From an uncultured bacterium (GTDB taxonomy: Bacteria > Bacillota_I > Bacilli_A > RF39 > UBA660): a stretch of 64,000 bases of DNA. Below, in pieces: positions 3,177-45,724 of the stretch. The stretch spans positions 78,950-142,949 of the forward strand of contig CAMNUE010000002.1 in the NCBI GenBank assembly GCA_946560065.1. The letters are read 5' to 3'. Each line of letters opens with the position of its first letter. Positions within the stretch are counted from its first letter, which is position 1. Both the position numbers and the translations under genes were made by a program. The notes under the pieces are model-generated. The model was not told where the DNA came from. It saw nothing but the letters and a program-made list of their open reading frames with translations, and made no database searches.

Positions 3177-4049
3177 ATGAAATTCCCAGAAGAAAAAGCA
3201 GATTCCTACATCGAAAGATTAAGTGGAATATCTAATAGTATAAAAACTATTTATAATGATTTAAGTGCAAATTTTGATAATGAAAATGAAGTTGAAAAAT
3301 TACAAGAATATTTAACATTAGCAATAGAACTAGAAGATAAAATTTTAAACGAAATTGGAAAAGAGCTTTTGGAAAATGAACGATTCATAAATAGATTAAA
3401 TTATCTAATAAACAGATCAGAGCTAAATCATAAAAATGATGTAATTACTAGAATAAATAACTACATAATAGAAAGAGGTTATTTAAATCCCTTCTTATCA
3501 ACTGAAGGAAACCCAGAAGAGAAAACGCTTGAAAATTATGTTACTATTAAAAATCAGGCTGCCCTAGACTACTTTAAAAGTATAATTATGTACATAGATA
3601 GTGAATTAGAAAATCCTAAGCAAGAATTAAAGAGAAAGTTAACAACAGCAAAAAATAATTTACTATATAGCCATAAAATGGTAAGTATAATAATGAAGGA
3701 TGAGAGATATCATCAAGTAGATGGAAGAGTCAGATGTATAGTATTTAATCAAAATGAAAAATTAGTAACTGATACTTATAAAGAATATGCTTATAGTATA
3801 ATCAACTATTGTTTGTATAGTATTCTTAATAAAGATGAAAATATTTTAGAACAAATTGAATTAAAAAGTGCCTTAAGCCTTTTAGACAAAGGAGAAATCT
3901 TCGAAGTAGCAAGAAGTTATAATAAAGCAACAAATGAAGACCAAGTTTTTAAATCATTAAGCGAAAATAATCCTAATCATAATATTATTATAAACATTAT
4001 AAAAAGTTTTATGGAAAAGCATATGGAAGTAACTAATGCAAAAAAATAA
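3177..4049 (+). CDS. hypothetical protein (one of only two plus-strand CDS calls here)
   Basis: 290-codon ORF with AAGGAAG RBS about 7 nt before the ATG. It lies between two minus-strand units. No motif recognised. Confidence 0.6.
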   Translation: MKFPEEKADSYIERLSGISNSIKTIYNDLSANFDNENEVEKLQEYLTLAIELEDKILNEIGKELLENERFINRLNYLINRSELNHKNDVITRINNYIIERGYLNPFLSTEGNPEEKTLENYVTIKNQAALDYFKSIIMYIDSELENPKQELKRKLTTAKNNLLYSHKMVSIIMKDERYHQVDGRVRCIVFNQNEKLVTDTYKEYAYSIINYCLYSILNKDENILEQIELKSALSLLDKGEIFEVARSYNKATNEDQVFKSLSENNPNHNIIINIIKSFMEKHMEVTNAKK

Positions 4050-5283: not shown

Positions 5284-6078
5284 TTAATTATTATCAAATA
5301 ACTTATCACTATCAGTACGAACCATTAAAGTACTAGTATTAATATTTTTTTCTAGATTAATAATCACATTCTTTTTACCATTTAATTTATAAAATAAAAT
5401 AACAACAATAATAAAAGTTAAAGTAACTGATAATACAACGATTTCAATCCAAGGAATATTCTTTACAACCTTACCTTTTTTATCAACCTTATAATTGCCA
5501 TCATTCATTCTATAAAAACCATCCAATATTTTGATATAATCATCAATAGCTTTATAGTAATTACCACCGGCTATATCTTTATAAACATATTCTAAGATTT
5601 GATTAATTCTAACATCTGTATAAATTTCAAATACTTTTCCAGAATGATCTCCACTATTTCCCATATATATTTCAGGTTCACTTCCTGCCATATACATAAC
5701 AAATACAATTCCATCATTCATAAAATCATTATAATCATAAAAATTATTAGCATATTCTACAATTGAAAATCCAAATAAATCGTTAGTTGTAATTACAGCA
5801 ACATCTATATTAGAATCCTTCGTATATTCATATAACTTACTATAAATCTTTTTTTCCTCATCTTCTGTGAGTAAATCTGCATAATCATATATCTTCTCAC
5901 TACTAGAAACGGCAGGAGTTCTGCGTATAGCATCTATATTACTACTATCAACAACTACATCCTTAGGAACTAATAAATTATCATCTGTTCTAGTATATGA
6001 ATTAACAGAAGCATTACAATTTAAATTAAAGAAAAAGAATGAGACTAAAAAACAAACAATTATCTTTATACTTTTCAT
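5284..6078 (-). CDS. TPM-domain membrane protein (YdjH-like)
   Basis: Signal peptide, then YDYADLLTEDEEKKIYSKLYEYTKDSNIDVAVITTNDL (TPM-type motif), and a C-terminal TM helix IEIVVLSVTLTFIIVVILFY. Confidence 0.65.
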   Translation of the reverse strand: MKSIKIIVCFLVSFFFFNLNCNASVNSYTRTDDNLLVPKDVVVDSSNIDAIRRTPAVSSSEKIYDYADLLTEDEEKKIYSKLYEYTKDSNIDVAVITTNDLFGFSIVEYANNFYDYNDFMNDGIVFVMYMAGSEPEIYMGNSGDHSGKVFEIYTDVRINQILEYVYKDIAGGNYYKAIDDYIKILDGFYRMNDGNYKVDKKGKVVKNIPWIEIVVLSVTLTFIIVVILFYKLNGKKNVIINLEKNINTSTLMVRTDSDKLFDNN

Positions 6079-9513: not shown

Positions 9514-9542
9514 AAAAAGGAAGTTTCAGTTCTTCCTTTTTT
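9514..9542 (-). terminator. bidirectional-looking intrinsic terminator
   Basis: aaaaaGGAAGtttcagttCTTCCtttttt. Confidence 0.55.
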
Positions 9543-10347: not shown

Positions 10348-11256
10348 TTAATATCCCAATTTTGTACGAACATCATCCAAAATTTCTTCTAAATAGTTTT
10401 GATAATCTTCTTTAACACCTGATGTCAGATTATCTTCTAATAAAATGCGATTATTAAGTGCTGCTAATTCTACAGGTTTTCCTTGAAAACGAATTTCCTG
10501 CTTGAATACCCTTTCTGGAAAAATATGACGCAACGTTTTAATCCACTCTTCATTGATTTTGTTGCGCTGTTTTAACGTAATTAACAACTTCACATCATAC
10601 GGTAGACGTTCTTCTTTGATCCATTCAATCAAGATTTCAATCGTTGCACCTAATCCGTTGATTGATCGATCAGAAATATTGAGTGGAACAATAATCGTAT
10701 CTCCCTCTTTACAGCAGGCACAGACTCCATTGTATGTCAACGAACTTTCAAACGGGCTGTTATCAATGATAATAACATCGTAATCATTATCAACATAGGA
10801 AAGAGCTGTTCTTAACTTTGCACTCGGATTTTTCCCCGATAATTTTAAGAAACCATCCGTCATCGACAATTCATCCGATGCTGGAATAATATCTAAATTG
10901 GAATATTTTGTCTTATAAATCGCATCCTTAACCAAAATAGGCTTTTTGAGAACATCGTTAATATCTGTCTGGTATTTTCGTTCTTTGGTGAATCCTCTCG
11001 ATGCCAGGGCTTTATAACTTTTCAAAATACCATTTTTGTCTTTACATTTGTCATACCATTCACGAATGTTGATAGCATCCTGTTCGCTGACTTCGTTATC
11101 ATCTTTCATCAAAGTCGATTGCCCATTTGCCTGCGGATCAAGCGGAATAAACAAAGTTCTATAACCACTCTGTGAAAGTCCATATGCCATATTGAGTGCT
11201 GTCTCTGTTTTTCCTACACCACCTTTGCGGTTTAAAATGTTATAAGTAATTGCCAT
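10348..11256 (-). CDS. parA: ParA/Soj-family partition ATPase
   Basis: ORF trimmed to ATG 11256 (AAGGAG 9 nt upstream). Deviant Walker A: MAITYNILNRKGGVGKTETALNMAYGL. Confidence 0.9.
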   Translation of the reverse strand: MAITYNILNRKGGVGKTETALNMAYGLSQSGYRTLFIPLDPQANGQSTLMKDDNEVSEQDAINIREWYDKCKDKNGILKSYKALASRGFTKERKYQTDINDVLKKPILVKDAIYKTKYSNLDIIPASDELSMTDGFLKLSGKNPSAKLRTALSYVDNDYDVIIIDNSPFESSLTYNGVCACCKEGDTIIVPLNISDRSINGLGATIEILIEWIKEERLPYDVKLLITLKQRNKINEEWIKTLRHIFPERVFKQEIRFQGKPVELAALNNRILLEDNLTSGVKEDYQNYLEEILDDVRTKLGY

Positions 11257-11281
11257 GTTGTTGTTCTCCTTGGTGTCTTTT

Positions 11282-11343
11282 ACCACCGACACAAGCAGTC
11301 AGCTTGTGTTTCGTCGCAATTTTCAGCGACTCATCAGGGCGAT
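11282..11343 (-). ncRNA. hammerhead ribozyme motif, type I topology (copy 1)
   Basis: Minus-strand RNA: AUCGCC CUGAUGA GUCGC-UGAAAAUU-GCGAC GAA ACACAAGC-UGACU-GCUUGUGU C GGUGGU. All invariant core positions and three stems are present. Confidence 0.8.
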
Positions 11344-11390
11344 TTTTATATTGTGTCTTTATTGTTTATTAAATTGTTTTGTTTAACAAC

Positions 11391-11615
11391 TCACTCTACT
11401 TCTTCTACATCATTTTTATTGATAGGATATTTTGTTCCCTCGTTGTCACAAGCAATATATTCCAATTCACCAAATATCAGCGCTTTCCAATCGTTTTTAT
11501 GAACTTCTTTTCCATCTAGTTCATTCATAAGTTCCGTTGTTTCATCATCCACTTTATCAAGTAGATTTTCTGTTTCTAACCTTTTTAACATTAACTCTTT
11601 TCTAAAAACTAACAT
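11391..11615 (-). CDS. hypothetical small acidic protein
   Basis: 74 aa, preceded by the shared GGAGAACAAC RBS module and promoter copy A. Confidence 0.6.
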   Translation of the reverse strand: MLVFRKELMLKRLETENLLDKVDDETTELMNELDGKEVHKNDWKALIFGELEYIACDNEGTKYPINKNDVEEVE

Positions 11616-11660
11616 TGTTGTTCTCCTCTGGTGTCATATTTCATCCTTATTTCTATACTT

Positions 11661-11689
11661 ATTATACTACACATTGTGTAGTATAGCAA
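11661..11689 (-). promoter_or_regulatory. promoter-operator copy A
   Basis: Minus strand TTGCTA-N17-TATAAT. The spacer plus the first 2 nt of the -10 form the palindrome TACTACACAATGTGTAGTA. Confidence 0.75.
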
Positions 11690-11693
11690 GTTT

Positions 11694-11882
11694 TTATTTA
11701 CCTTTTTTTTCACTGTTAATTAAAATTTCATCCAGGGCATCGATTTGTTTTTGAAGTTCAAATTTTAAATTATTAGCTATTTCTTTTTGAGAGTATTTTT
11801 CCCTTATCGAACCCAAGGTATTATATAAAATATATGATAAATCCTCGATAATAAAAAATAATGTTTTTTCTTTTTTATTCAT
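11694..11882 (-). CDS. hypothetical small protein
   Basis: 62 aa; overlaps the end of the upstream gene by 8 nt (coupled). Confidence 0.45.
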   Translation of the reverse strand: MNKKEKTLFFIIEDLSYILYNTLGSIREKYSQKEIANNLKFELQKQIDALDEILINSEKKGK

Positions 11883-12951
11883 GATAATCCCTTTCTATTT
11901 TTTTGTTTTCCTGATTATTCACAACTTGATTGATCGTGATCGGCAATTCTGAATCATCCAACATTTCTTGATGAATGATTGATGGAGCAATCCAATTCAA
12001 TTTTAGTTGTCGGTTTTGTTCTTTCTTGCTACCGATCCAGTAATGATGCCAATGTCCTTTGCGAACATGAGGTCTTTTTTGGCTTCCATTCTTTTGCAAG
12101 ACAATTATTTTTTGCCTATTATTTATCGGTTCTGGAATAGCAACATCATTAGCATGTACTTTTACTGTCTTTCGAATAACTTCTGATATTTTTCTTCCAC
12201 ATTCAAATTGACGTACTTCTTTGTATTGATCTTTAATTACTGCTCTTTTCTTATACACCTTTCCATCTTCATTTTTTTCACTAATTTCCGCATTCTGTGC
12301 ACAAATATAAAGCAGAAGCTGCATCACAGAAGTAACTAACCGAATATATTGCTCTGCTTGATTTTTATAATCCTGTTCAGAACAAGGATGCCTTTTTTGC
12401 GTAAAAGATGAATATTGATCGAAAAAATGTGAAAACACATTCTTTATATTTTGACCTTTTGCTACGTAAAGTGGCACTGGAATTAGTAAATCTTTGGTTA
12501 CTAGCATCAAACGAAATTGCTTTTTATTATTCTTTACTAGATAAAAAGCAAAAAAACCAAGTATATCCATAATATTTAAATTCTTAGTTTCAATAAAGAT
12601 ACATGAATAAGGAAGATTTTGTAAAACATCTACGGGAACATTAAAATCTTCCGTCGCTTGCTCATATAAAAGTTTTTCCAGTTCTCCGTAAAAACTATAA
12701 ATTTGTTTATTTTTTCTCCACATACTCAATGCTGTGAGCATTTCTAAATCAATCGCAACAGAACTCATATAGTCAATCTTATCCAACACTTTCCGTTCCT
12801 TGCTCATAACTATACGAGCTATTGACTTGATGGTTGGAGATTCCTCATTAGAATTCAGGCACTTTTCATATTCAATTTTTTCCCAGCATTTTGTATAATT
12901 CTTGGAATATAACTTTACAAGTTCCAAAGGAACGCAAGTTGATTTACTCAT
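11875..12951 (-). CDS. hypothetical protein
   Basis: 358 aa; overlaps the ssb stop by 8 nt. C-terminal RPHVRKGHWHHYWIGSKK motif, not assigned to any family. Confidence 0.6.
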   Translation of the reverse strand: MSKSTCVPLELVKLYSKNYTKCWEKIEYEKCLNSNEESPTIKSIARIVMSKERKVLDKIDYMSSVAIDLEMLTALSMWRKNKQIYSFYGELEKLLYEQATEDFNVPVDVLQNLPYSCIFIETKNLNIMDILGFFAFYLVKNNKKQFRLMLVTKDLLIPVPLYVAKGQNIKNVFSHFFDQYSSFTQKRHPCSEQDYKNQAEQYIRLVTSVMQLLLYICAQNAEISEKNEDGKVYKKRAVIKDQYKEVRQFECGRKISEVIRKTVKVHANDVAIPEPINNRQKIIVLQKNGSQKRPHVRKGHWHHYWIGSKKEQNRQLKLNWIAPSIIHQEMLDDSELPITINQVVNNQENKKIERDYHE

Positions 12952-15452: not shown

Positions 15453-15495
15453 GGTGTTGTTCTCCTCTGGATGTCTCATCCTTATTTCTATATTT

Positions 15496-17223: not shown

Positions 17224-17248
17224 AAAAAAGTCGCTTATTTCAGCGACT
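17224..17248 (-). terminator. intrinsic terminator
   Basis: Minus strand AGUCGCU-GAAAUA-AGCGACU followed by U6. Confidence 0.75.
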
Positions 17249-17789
17249 AATATACCTCTTTCATTATTGTAAACAAACGACCAGCAAGTGGATTTTGTTC
17301 ATACGTTTCCATATACAATGTTGGTACTTTATATTTTTTCTTTATGTTCTGGATTTCATTGGCTGATTGACAAGCCTTTTCTACATCAAAACTTTGTAAG
17401 TTTTCAATACTAGATTCAATCGAATCAATGCGAGTTTGGATCAAACTTCTAAATTTATCAATATCGATTCGATTTTCATCATCTGTAATCGTAGTTGTAT
17501 ACCTGTTTCCGTTTGATCCTTGGAAGTTAATACCATACATGTGTCTATCTACAAATTTTAATGGATGCATTTCATAGATGCCATAAGGATTTTTCCAAAT
17601 ATTCCATGTCGTATTTTCTGTTAAGAAATTACAAAAACGTTTATTTAAAATTTTTTTATTCCATTTTTCAAGGTTAGGAACTTCCAATAAACTTGAAATT
17701 TCTTTTTTCAATGCGGTATATGCTTCTAATTCAGCTCGATAAGTAGATTTAATCGTTTCGATTTCCTTTTCAGTAAAAGTTGCTATCAT
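17247..17789 (-). CDS. hypothetical protein (cassette gene)
   Basis: Trimmed to ATG 17789 (GAGGAGAACAAC RBS). The longer ORF would read through the hammerhead. Confidence 0.65.
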   Translation of the reverse strand: MIATFTEKEIETIKSTYRAELEAYTALKKEISSLLEVPNLEKWNKKILNKRFCNFLTENTTWNIWKNPYGIYEMHPLKFVDRHMYGINFQGSNGNRYTTTITDDENRIDIDKFRSLIQTRIDSIESSIENLQSFDVEKACQSANEIQNIKKKYKVPTLYMETYEQNPLAGRLFTIMKEVY

Positions 17790-17810
17790 GTTGTTCTCCT
17801 CTGGTGTCCT

Positions 17811-17867
17811 ATCACCGACACCCTTGCGAGTGTTTCGTCGCAATTTTCAGCGACTCGTCAGGGTGAC
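17811..17867 (-). ncRNA. hammerhead ribozyme motif, type I topology (copy 2)
   Basis: GUCACC CUGACGA GUCGC-UGAAAAUU-GCGAC GAA ACACUC-GCAA-GGGUGU C GGUGAU. Stems I and III differ from copy 1 but still pair. Confidence 0.8.
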
Positions 17868-17884
17868 TTATCCATTTCAAATCT

Positions 17885-18193
17885 TTAATCAAAATTTATA
17901 GGGCAGATTCGATACAGAATCTGTACCTTCCCCTCAATTTCGTAAACACATCTATCATCAGTAAGTTTCAAGTAGCGTTCAATTGGTTCTACTATGTTCA
18001 CTTCTCCTTTACCTTGCTTCATTATCTGGATAAAGCAATCTGGAATGTTTTCCATCTCTTCATGAAGATCTCGAAGAATTTCCATGTGTGCTTCTTCCTT
18101 TGTGTCATGTAGGAGACTTCCTACAATCACAGTTTGGCATTTTGGCGATCCCTTAAACCATGGATATGTTGCAGTTACGATGTATTTTTTCAT
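17885..18193 (-). CDS. hypothetical protein (cassette gene)
   Basis: Trimmed to ATG 18193 (AAGGAGAACAAC RBS). Confidence 0.65.
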   Translation of the reverse strand: MKKYIVTATYPWFKGSPKCQTVIVGSLLHDTKEEAHMEILRDLHEEMENIPDCFIQIMKQGKGEVNIVEPIERYLKLTDDRCVYEIEGKVQILYRICPINFD

Positions 18194-18236
18194 AATGTTG
18201 TTCTCCTTTGGATGTCTCATCCTTATTTCTATATTT

Positions 18237-18265
18237 ATTATACTACACATTGTGTAGTATAATAA
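18237..18265 (-). promoter_or_regulatory. promoter-operator copy E
   Basis: TTATTA-N17-TATAAT with the perfect palindrome TACTACACAATGTGTAGTA. Confidence 0.7.
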
Positions 18266-18274
18266 ATCTTTTTA

Positions 18275-18301
18275 TAAAAAAAGTCGCTTATTTCAGCGAC
18301 T
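18275..18301 (-). terminator. intrinsic terminator overlapping the last codons of 18293..18604
   Basis: AGUCGCU-GAAAUA-AGCGACU followed by U7; the same hairpin as at 17229-17248. Confidence 0.7.
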
Positions 18302-18604
18302 CATCAGGCAATTCAATTCTCTAAACCATTTATCATAATTTGCACATGAACAATAACCAGCTGACGCCAACACAAAATCATCAACCATTGTAGATAGACG
18401 TTCATCTGAATCTTCACCTACTAACACTTGTATATTACCGTTCGACAAATATTCTATCTGACAATCCATAATTGGTTGAAACTCTTTATATCCTTCTTCT
18501 GTCAACTCCATATTTTCCCATACAAATGTTGCTGTCGCTTCAAAATCACCAAACAACTCACAATCAAAATCTTTTCTTGTGTCTAACAGTTCTTTCAATG
18601 TCAT
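18293..18604 (-). CDS. hypothetical protein, paralogous to the N-terminus of 28995..29792
   Basis: ELTEEGYKEFQPIMDC here versus VLTEKGYNYFKPIMDC in the 265-aa protein. Confidence 0.65.
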   Translation of the reverse strand: MTLKELLDTRKDFDCELFGDFEATATFVWENMELTEEGYKEFQPIMDCQIEYLSNGNIQVLVGEDSDERLSTMVDDFVLASAGYCSCANYDKWFRELNCLMSR

Positions 18605-44570: not shown

Positions 44571-44592
44571 AACAATCTCCTTTCTAAATAAA

Positions 44593-44605
44593 GGAACTCA
44601 GTTCC
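44593..44605. repeat. GGAACTNAGTTCC palindrome, copy 7
   Basis: 22 nt before the primase ATG 44570. Confidence 0.9.
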
Positions 44606-44619
44606 TTTTTCTTTTCTCT

Positions 44620-44680
44620 ATTGTTTGAAAGATAGAAAAAAATCTATCTCTCAAACAATAAAGAGAGGAATATTCCTCTC
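44620..44680 (-). terminator. two consecutive hairpins after the pilus operon
   Basis: Palindrome GAGAGGAAUAUUCCUCUC (44663-44680), then a 16-bp stem with one mismatch (44620-44659). Confidence 0.6.
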
Positions 44681-44689
44681 AATATTTGT

Positions 44690-45724
44690 TTAATCTTTTT
44701 TTGATTTTCTCAGTTTGCAAATCAAAATGATGCTTACACCTGCTACACAAGCAAGTCCTACGTAAAGTCCAAGATTAGAATTTACACCAGTATGTACGTT
44801 GTTAAACGGCAATAAGGAATTCTTATAAACGATCGAATACAATAATTCATCGTCGGATTCTGCTTTTTTGTCATTCACAAAAATACCTTCATCATTTACC
44901 TCAATTTTTACGACTTCTGGGCTGAGGATATAGCCTTGTGGGGCTTTTGTCTCTTTAATGTATGTTACACCATAATCGACCATAAATACGGCTGTTCCTG
45001 TTTCTGTGTTGCCCTGAACTGTATCAATCGGCTTCTTGCAATCTTTGTCTTCATAGGATGTAAATTCAAATTGGCTGTTCGTGATGTTTTTCATCGTAGA
45101 TTCATCCACTTTGTTCACTTCAATTTTTGGAAGTTGATTGTGTTTTGGATAAACATCTACATCGTAAAGCATCAATTTGTCAATATCATCCCATGTTGGA
45201 ATAGCAATCAAAAACGGTGTAATAAATTCGTATTCAGCAACATCGACTACGTAAAACAGATATACGCCAACTGGTACATCTGTGTATATCGCTTTTCCTT
45301 CGGCATTTGTCTTGAGTAACGTCACGTCTTCTGAGTTCTCTTCAATCTTATGTGCCAATTCTTTAGCGTAAAGCTCCATTTCATTGGCATTTTTGATTTC
45401 ATTCAAGTCAAGACCTGTTTCTGTAAAAGGTTCGTTGAGTATATATTCTCCCTTTTCGATTTTCGCAACTTGTACGACTCCAAATTGTACGTTTTCTTTG
45501 GATCTTTTATCCGCTGAATCTTCCAACTGAATCGTAATACTGCCTAATCCATTTTCGGGAATAACTGTCAAATCCTTTTCAGGAACAAGCGTTACATCAG
45601 ATGTTCTTTCGCCGTCATCGTTTTTATACTCTTCTGCCATAACTGGATTCGCACATAATAGAGGAATAGATAAAGCGATTCCTGCGGTTAGCAACATGGT
45701 TTTTAATTTATTCACCAGCATCAC
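44690..45724 (-). CDS. minor/basal pilin-like surface protein with non-canonical sorting signal
   Basis: Signal peptide. SpaA/CnaB-like module EFTSYEDKDCKKPIDTV...YIKETKAPQGYILS. C-terminus NVHTG + hydrophobic helix + KLRKSKKD. Confidence 0.7.
   Translation of the reverse strand: MMLVNKLKTMLLTAGIALSIPLLCANPVMAEEYKNDDGERTSDVTLVPEKDLTVIPENGLGSITIQLEDSADKRSKENVQFGVVQVAKIEKGEYILNEPFTETGLDLNEIKNANEMELYAKELAHKIEENSEDVTLLKTNAEGKAIYTDVPVGVYLFYVVDVAEYEFITPFLIAIPTWDDIDKLMLYDVDVYPKHNQLPKIEVNKVDESTMKNITNSQFEFTSYEDKDCKKPIDTVQGNTETGTAVFMVDYGVTYIKETKAPQGYILSPEVVKIEVNDEGIFVNDKKAESDDELLYSIVYKNSLLPFNNVHTGVNSNLGLYVGLACVAGVSIILICKLRKSKKD

Follow-up and report, generated by a model that had tools for sequence, protein, structure and literature searches.

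The locus and its host element

In the 64,000-nucleotide window of DNA analysed here, a spacer of 134 nt separates two minus-strand genes, orf74 and parA, and holds a hammerhead ribozyme motif (HH1). The upstream gene encodes a small protein without a Pfam or PHROG match and the downstream gene a ParA/MinD-type ATPase. A second complete hammerhead (HH2) and a partial one are also found in the window; the coordinates of all these features are collected in Table 1. The original prediction had placed the motif in plasmid or other mobile DNA, a setting borne out by the relaxase, VirD4, VirB4 and further conjugation proteins that the window encodes. The region between 19429 and 51312, with nearly all of its genes on the minus strand, specifies a relaxase of the MobA/VirD2 type (~30% identity to known Bacillota plasmid relaxases), a sortase, a DNA methylase, a CHAP/lysozyme hydrolase, a VirB4-like ATPase and a VirD4 coupling protein, and the window also encodes a 1158-aa primase and LPXTG/thioester adhesins. 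Judged by this gene content, the window is a Gram-positive conjugative element rather than a phage. No near-identical DNA was found in the phage and plasmid collections. The relaxase gene is followed downstream by a run of small cassettes, accompanied by a ParB-like protein, HNH, SSB and a protein annotated elsewhere as AcrVA2-like. Establishment or leading regions of conjugative elements have been described (PMC11541004) and, by analogy, the cassette run appears to resemble such a region.

Two further observations concern the element as a whole. The 358-aa protein encoded beside SSB (11875-12951) carries a precomputed PF26125 AcrVA2-like assignment on identical copies in two other contigs (L039 and L040), had no match in our own Pfam scan and belongs to PHROGs phrog_6160, of unknown function. 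Three strong hairpins, one of them a 20-bp perfect palindrome (z = -6.75), lie in the intergenic region that follows the primase gene (44575-44700). This region gave spurious miRNA matches on both strands and may represent a cluster of terminators or a site resembling oriT.

Table 1. Features of the orf74-parA locus and of the related elements in the window
Feature	Position	Strand	Remarks
Palindromic operator ACTACACAATGTGTAGT	11666-11682	-	Overlaps the orf74 promoter
Promoter-like site TTGCTA-17-TATAAT	11661-11689	-	Putative start of the orf74-HH1-parA transcript; one of six homologous modules
orf74	11391-11615 (stop 11393-11391)	-	First cistron, 74 codons
HH1, unpaired AA directly 5' of stem I	11344-11345	-	Candidate loop II partner; AA in 83/85 subclass sequences
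HH1, stem I 5' strand AUCGCC	11338-11343	-	
HH1, catalytic core CUGAUGA	11331-11337	-	C3 U4 G5 A6 U7 G8 A9
HH1, stem II GUCGC/GCGAC	11313-11330 (strands 11330-11326, 11317-11313)	-	Conserved loop UGAAAAUU
HH1, core GAA	11310-11312	-	G12 A13 A14
HH1, stem III ACACAAGC/GCUUGUGU	11289-11309 (strands 11309-11302, 11296-11289)	-	8 bp, loop UGACU
HH1, C17	11288	-	Cleavage nucleotide; predicted scission 11288/11287
HH1, stem I 3' strand GGUGGU	11282-11287	-	First six nt of the predicted 3' product
Alternative hairpin GGUG-N8-CACC	11272-11287	-	From nt 1 of the predicted 3' product; competes with stem I
parA Shine-Dalgarno AAGGAG	11266-11271	-	Directly 3' of the GGUG/CACC hairpin; part of the shared leader ARAGGAGAACAAC
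parA	10348-11256	-	302 aa; first cistron of the predicted 3' product
Terminator-like hairpin	9514-9541	-	First past parA and three small ORFs; putative transcript end
HH2	17811-17867	-	Complete type I hammerhead, same subclass as HH1; core CUGACGA, C17 at 17817; subclass model 73.1 bits
Hammerhead 5' half CCUGAUGA with a stem II-like hairpin, then a U-run	18261-18319	-	Without GAAA and stem III; subclass model 19.5 bits

Structure of the HH1 motif

Read on the minus strand from 11343 to 11282, HH1 has the sequence AUCGCC-CUGAUGA-GUCGC-UGAAAAUU-GCGAC-GAA-ACACAAGC-UGACU-GCUUGUGU-C-GGUGGU, which is identical, base for base, to that given in the original prediction, and every invariant hammerhead position claimed there is present. 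The core comprises CUGAUGA and GAA, as in the hammerhead consensus and in agreement between the Rfam and subclass-model alignments, and position 17, a non-G nucleotide in the consensus, is a C. Stem II is a regular helix of 5 bp with an 8-nt loop, in which G10.1-C11.1 closes the core, A15.1-U16.1 forms the base of stem III, and stem I has 6 bp including two G-U pairs; the three core-adjacent pairs (G11330-C11313, A11309-U11289 and C11338-G11287) are all formed. The type I topology that had been proposed, with stem I open and stems II and III closed by loops, agrees with the comparative evidence, and the predicted cut does lie 31 nt ahead of the parA ATG (11256-11254).

The core pattern, CTGATGAG..N..CGAAAC, has a single match in the window and none in 100 dinucleotide shuffles. 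Folded alone, the 62 nt of HH1 adopt exactly the hammerhead secondary structure as their minimum-free-energy fold (-24.1 kcal/mol), and an 81-nt segment around the motif has a folding z of -4.7. Stems II and III were recovered as stable hairpins in all folds computed, and neither is followed by a U-run.

Fast hammerhead cleavage at physiological Mg2+ requires a tertiary contact between stems I and II. In the subclass to which HH1 is assigned below, loop II (UGAAAAUU) is recurrent and an AA dinucleotide is near-invariant on the 5' side of a fixed stem I of 5-6 bp; judged from sequence, these elements would be suitable tertiary partners. A Watson-Crick pseudoknot between AAAA of loop II and an upstream UUUU was considered and rejected since, on a listing inspected by eye, it is possible in some members and absent from the window and from many others.

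Covariance-model scores

No Rfam family reaches its gathering score anywhere in the window. In a sub-threshold scan, the best match of HH1 was to RF03152 (RAGATH-1-hammerhead), at 29.0 bits against a gathering score of 56.3 and with E = 0.98 for the whole-window search. Within the clan, the best score was that of a partial match to Hammerhead_3 (19.7 bits), and no match of HH1 to RF00163 (Hammerhead_1, gathering 34) was listed in the permissive scan. HH2 aligns end to end with RF00163 at 25.2 bits, again relative to a gathering score of 34. The original prediction had proposed a covariance-model search as a check, with a score below gathering counting against it, and HH1 formally falls on that side. 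However, the Rfam gathering score is uninformative for the hammerhead subclass of HH1, because 18 loci with clear subclass members likewise gave no type I hammerhead match at gathering and even the best-scoring member reached only 19-24 bits (19.3 for RF00163, against 34).

A covariance model of the subclass was built from 17 unrelated members, with the window left out. Under this model HH1 scores 64.6 bits (E 8e-20) and HH2 73.1 bits, both inside the range of 28-85 bits covered by the other members. On this evidence, HH1 is assigned to a type I subclass of gut-Clostridia mobile elements that has the loop UGAAAAUU and is delimited in the present analysis. The curated Rfam thresholds miss a very abundant hammerhead subclass, so that standard annotation underestimates the number of ribozymes in gut mobile elements.

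A type I subclass of gut Clostridia

The subclass was collected with the pattern CTGATGAG-N4-TGAAAANT-N4-CGAAAC, in which only stem II, loop II and the core are fixed. At least 120 stretches in viral contigs carry the same stem II and loop II (UGAAAANU), and the same scan with N7 free returned at least 119 stretches in species genomes, mostly MAGs of gut Clostridia. A complete type I structure, defined by a full stem III, a nucleotide other than G at position 17 and 4-6 bp in stem I, is formed by 85/99 of the non-redundant matches listed from viral contigs and by 90/111 of those from species genomes, compared with 15/1980 shuffled controls (0.8%). In an alignment of 106 distinct matches, 95% of cells pair, and each of the three stems covaries strongly, with compensatory changes at 15 of the 17 pairs. 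The covariation score of 0.627 compares with 0.13 after shuffling and at most 0.07 with slid partners; the alignment was fitted to the subclass model, and the slide control and an independent regex-based parse agree with it. G10.1-C11.1 and A15.1-U16.1 are invariant across these 106 sequences. At position 17, 74 sequences have C, 8 have U and 3 have A. Among the sequences parsed, no stem I is longer than 6 bp, and the stem II/loop II element is nearly fixed as GUCNN-UGAAAAUU-NNGAC.

Members of the subclass are placed between co-directional genes, with the stop codon of the upstream ORF at a median of 1 nt before stem I and the cut at a median of 40 nt before a start codon that is preceded by a Shine-Dalgarno (SD) sequence. 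Most of the downstream genes, which are small (median 116 aa), are of unknown function; those recognisable encode Rho_N-domain, ParB-like and ArdC-like proteins, SSB, DUF2786 proteins and HTH regulators. Many loci have two or three copies. Taken together, the sequence comparisons indicate that HH1 is very probably a self-cleaving hammerhead RNA, a well-supported but unremarkable addition to a known type of ribozyme and one of hundreds in a common subclass of gut Clostridia.

Three copies in tandem were observed in several loci (among those listed, L056, L073, L074, L086, L100, L110, L126 and L158). Other ribozymes also occur in this material: one viral contig (L015) has two pistol ribozymes (2806-2875 and 3609-3678) beside its subclass hammerhead, and another (L140) has a type II hammerhead at 5289-5364.

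A second copy and a probable remnant

HH2 lies ~6.5 kb from HH1; the ORFs on either side of it encode 101 aa and 180 aa, the latter starting with the ATG at 17789. The two ribozymes have an identical stem II and a homologous 3' leader, and their stems I and III differ in sequence yet stay paired. They also share their place in the operon, in the order promoter/operator, small first ORF, hammerhead, larger ORF and terminator. A descriptor scan of the window for type I and type III hammerheads returned nothing beyond these two. The hammerhead 5' half that runs into a U-run (Table 1) is probably a remnant that now serves as an intrinsic terminator.

Terminator-like hairpins of the form GUCGCUGAAAUAAGCGAC with a U-run, nearly identical to the hammerhead stem II, are seen at 18281-18302 and 17229-17248 on the minus strand; the former overlaps the last codons of a 103-aa ORF and has CCUGAUGA ahead of it.

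Promoters, leaders and flanking genes

The promoter and operator ahead of orf74 belong to a set of six homologous minus-strand modules (at 11666, 15501, 16676, 17190, 18242 and 18649), each of which combines a -35 box with the palindrome ACTACAC-N3-GTGTAGT overlapping a TATAAT-like -10 element (TATAGT in one copy). The shared operators point to one repressor acting on a regulon of small cassettes. The original prediction relied on there being no terminator between orf74 and parA; the promoter/terminator scan found none on the minus strand and no promoter-like site either, and the premise of a bicistronic mRNA, in which the two genes would be co-transcribed, fits this result.

The leader of parA (ARAGGAGAACAAC) is homologous to the leaders of the six promoter/operator cassettes, in which an equivalent hairpin, GGAUGAGACAUCC, precedes the same SD and spacer. 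A common plan, consisting of a short GC hairpin, A(R)AGGAGAACAAC and AUG, is recognisable in both promoter- and hammerhead-driven cistrons, at 11617-11650, 15455-15490, 17790-17816, 18190-18225 and 11257-11287 of the minus strand.

Comparison of the flanking genes with their relatives shows that only near-identical relatives, whose ParA is at least 94% identical, have retained the ribozyme, almost unchanged, and that these are too similar to show covariation; in one of these (L034, 94% identity) the stem III loop reads AAACA instead of UGACU and the stem is kept. ParA homologues at 59-74% identity have no ribozyme spacer, and an ORF of ~270-300 aa (269-299 aa) abuts their parA gene, while a scan for ParA relatives in viral contigs found none. 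The homologues of orf74 (loci L282-L294) encode 86 aa at 68-91% identity and always lie between PrgI (VirB3-like) and a VirB4-like ATPase; in these type IV secretion operons there is no such spacer and no match to the subclass model. Since the spacer is absent from the homologues of both genes, the presence of HH1 at this site is recent and goes with the cassette junction rather than with the function of ParA. On these comparisons, the ribozyme is linked neither to parA nor to orf74, and a specific role in partition is therefore unlikely.

The window's only copy of orf74 is displaced to the promoter cassette upstream of parA and is without the first 12 residues. Logan contigs L034 and L035, from the 94%-identity relative with the AAACA loop, both begin inside the ribozyme at GAA|ACACAAGC, probably because the assembly broke at the repeated hammerhead core.

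Refolding of the predicted 3' product

The self-complementarity of GGUG and CACC at the start of the 3' product, pointed out in the original prediction, is recovered as a hairpin in the computed folds and recurs across the subclass. The predicted 3' products begin with GGUGGUAAAAGACACC-AAGGAGAACAAC for HH1 and with GGUGAUAGGACACC-AGAGGAGAACAAC for HH2, and both fold a GGUG/CACC hairpin that extends from nt 1 to the SD. In a strict, de-duplicated test of the matches listed from both collections, a 5'-flush hairpin that re-uses the 3' strand of stem I was formed by 54/153 non-redundant products, compared with 15.5 +/- 3.4 in shuffled sequences (maximum 24 in 300 runs); an earlier, looser test for 5'-terminal hairpins had given a marginal difference only (46% versus 32% in shuffles).

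The same hairpin competes with the ribozyme. It replaces stem I in the minimum-free-energy fold of the 81-nt segment, and for a 167-nt precursor, constraining the fold to the hammerhead costs 5.7 kcal/mol relative to the unconstrained one. With flanks included, nearest-neighbour folding thus favours the hairpin over stem I, so that cleavage could be partial or slow. The hairpin may make cleavage irreversible and shield the new 5' end; in these models it could equally well limit the extent of cleavage.

A proposed role in mRNA processing

From the features described above, it is probable that an active type I hammerhead occupies the spacer and that orf74 and parA form one operon of the conjugative element, and the likely role of HH1 is intercistronic mRNA processing. 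In the proposed mechanism, transcription would start at the operator-controlled promoter and proceed through orf74, HH1, parA and three small ORFs to the terminator-like hairpin. The ribozyme would fold and cut after C17, leaving an orf74 mRNA that retains all of the ribozyme and carries a terminal 2',3'-cyclic phosphate immediately after stem III, which would form a structured 3' end. The downstream product would be a parA mRNA with a 5'-OH on GGUGGU and a 31-nt leader, in which GGUGGU would leave stem I and pair with CACC to give a hairpin flush with the new 5' end, ahead of the AAGGAG ribosome-binding site. After cleavage, the first small cistron would no longer share its stability and translation with parA and the later genes, and parA would gain a hairpin-plus-SD leader like those of the promoter-proximal genes of the element. 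Co-transcription, cleavage in vivo, effects on decay or translation, and a hairpin that protects the 5' end or blocks re-ligation would all be parts of this scheme.

Three other explanations have to be weighed against intercistronic processing. HH1 may be able to cleave and nevertheless be a neutral passenger, a hammerhead-plus-leader module that recombines with cassettes and has no specific role in the expression of parA or orf74. Such a history would account for the lack of conservation of HH1 with either flanking gene beyond the near-identical relatives, for the half-hammerhead fused to a U-run, for the contig breaks inside the ribozyme of the 94%-identity relative, and for the identical stem II and homologous 3' leader of HH1 and HH2, as expected of a duplicated module. 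However, both copies have a perfect core and fully paired stems, with the differences between their stems I and III compensated, and across the subclass the position of the ribozyme is fixed relative to the stop codon, SD and start and the refolding hairpin is enriched, the last two of which point to selection on function; we consider a passenger unlikely.

That the locus supplies only hairpins, serving as an attenuator, an RNase III or protein-binding site or an mRNA stabiliser without self-cleavage, is less probable still. The stability of stems II and III in every fold would be in keeping with it, as would the competition predicted between stem I and the alternative hairpin and the re-use of a near-identical stem II hairpin as the stem of the two terminators described above. 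Against this, no U-run follows stem II or stem III of HH1, and CUGANGA, GAA, G10.1-C11.1, A15.1-U16.1 and a non-G nucleotide at position 17 are held in more than 200 sequences in which the stems vary freely; only catalysis explains a pattern in which the core is held while the stems vary, and a purely structural element is thus very unlikely. Chance resemblance in AT-rich intergenic DNA, to which the uniformly sub-gathering Rfam scores and the weak RAGATH-1 E-value might be taken to point, can be set aside almost entirely, given the absence of the pattern from all 100 shuffles, an E-value of ~1e-19 under the independent subclass model, a second copy 6.5 kb away and hundreds of covarying relatives.

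More tentatively, and with rather less confidence than we place in processing as such, the hammerhead and its overlapping hairpin may constitute one portable, promoter-independent generator of mRNA 5' ends. Nucleotides released from stem I would snap into a hairpin flush with the 5'-OH and next to the ribosome-binding site, which would render the reaction irreversible, and an internal cistron would gain the protected hairpin-SD leader of promoter-proximal cistrons. If this doubtful possibility were true, the unit would allow early or establishment cassettes (ParA, ParB-like, SSB, ArdC-like and many unknowns) to be shuffled within the conjugative elements and phages of gut Clostridia, with each cassette keeping its own mRNA stability and translation rate.

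Relationship to known ribozymes

Hammerheads have been known in bacterial mobile DNA since 2011. Tandem copies that flank genes in such DNA cleave in vitro and in vivo and have been proposed to process long transcripts (PMC3088659); a later review proposes the same role and describes the biological role as still elusive (PMC6765202). The orf74-parA processing proposed here matches the role suggested for bacterial hammerheads in both publications, and a ribozyme of this kind immediately ahead of ardA, a conjugative-element gene, had already been noted (PMC3088659). In common with the type I hammerheads of prophages and mobile DNA (PMC3088659; RF00163), HH1 has the conserved core, the three-way junction, an open stem I and a non-G nucleotide at position 17, and it also shares with them the intergenic site between co-directional genes and the presence of several copies per element (PMC3088659). 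It differs from RF00163 as a member of a subclass with nearly fixed stem II and loop II, a stem I of 5-6 bp, a near-invariant AA on the 5' side and sub-gathering scores, and from the prophage examples in its host, a conjugative element with a type IV secretion system. The points added by the window are the second copy, HH2, the blind spot of the Rfam thresholds and the recurrent refolding hairpin.

RAGATH-1 (RF03152) resembles HH1 in being type I and in having an A-rich, UAUAAAA-like tail directly 5' of a short stem I. Membership of HH1 in this family was rejected, however: its score is about half of the gathering value, its stem II has 5 bp where RAGATH-1 has a minimal stem II, and the conserved upstream hairpin of RAGATH-1 is unmatched in HH1.

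The only self-cleaving ribozyme of bacteria whose role is established is glmS (PMC6765202). As predicted for HH1, it is a self-cleaving RNA in the mRNA leader of a Bacillota-type gene, and its 5'-OH product decides the fate of the downstream mRNA. In contrast to HH1, glmS needs a metabolite cofactor, and once it is cleaved the message is degraded by cellular RNases (PMC6765202); no ligand pocket is expected in HH1, and any effect of its 5'-flush hairpin would be to protect the product. That a hammerhead can set an mRNA 5' end has a precedent in HHphage of haloviruses HF1/HF2, for which a mapped transcript 5' end lies at most 3 nt from the cleavage site (PMC3088659). This ribozyme differs from HH1 in its archaeal host, its variant core, its need for high Mg2+ and its location at the start of a transcript (PMC3088659), whereas HH1 lies between cistrons.

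A compact natural comparison is available within the window, which would make it possible to test whether cleavage sets the relative stability and translation of neighbouring cistrons and whether a 5'-flush hairpin protects a 5'-OH mRNA. The hairpin-SD leader follows an operator-controlled promoter six times and a hammerhead twice, in each case within a short operon that has a recognisable promoter and terminator.
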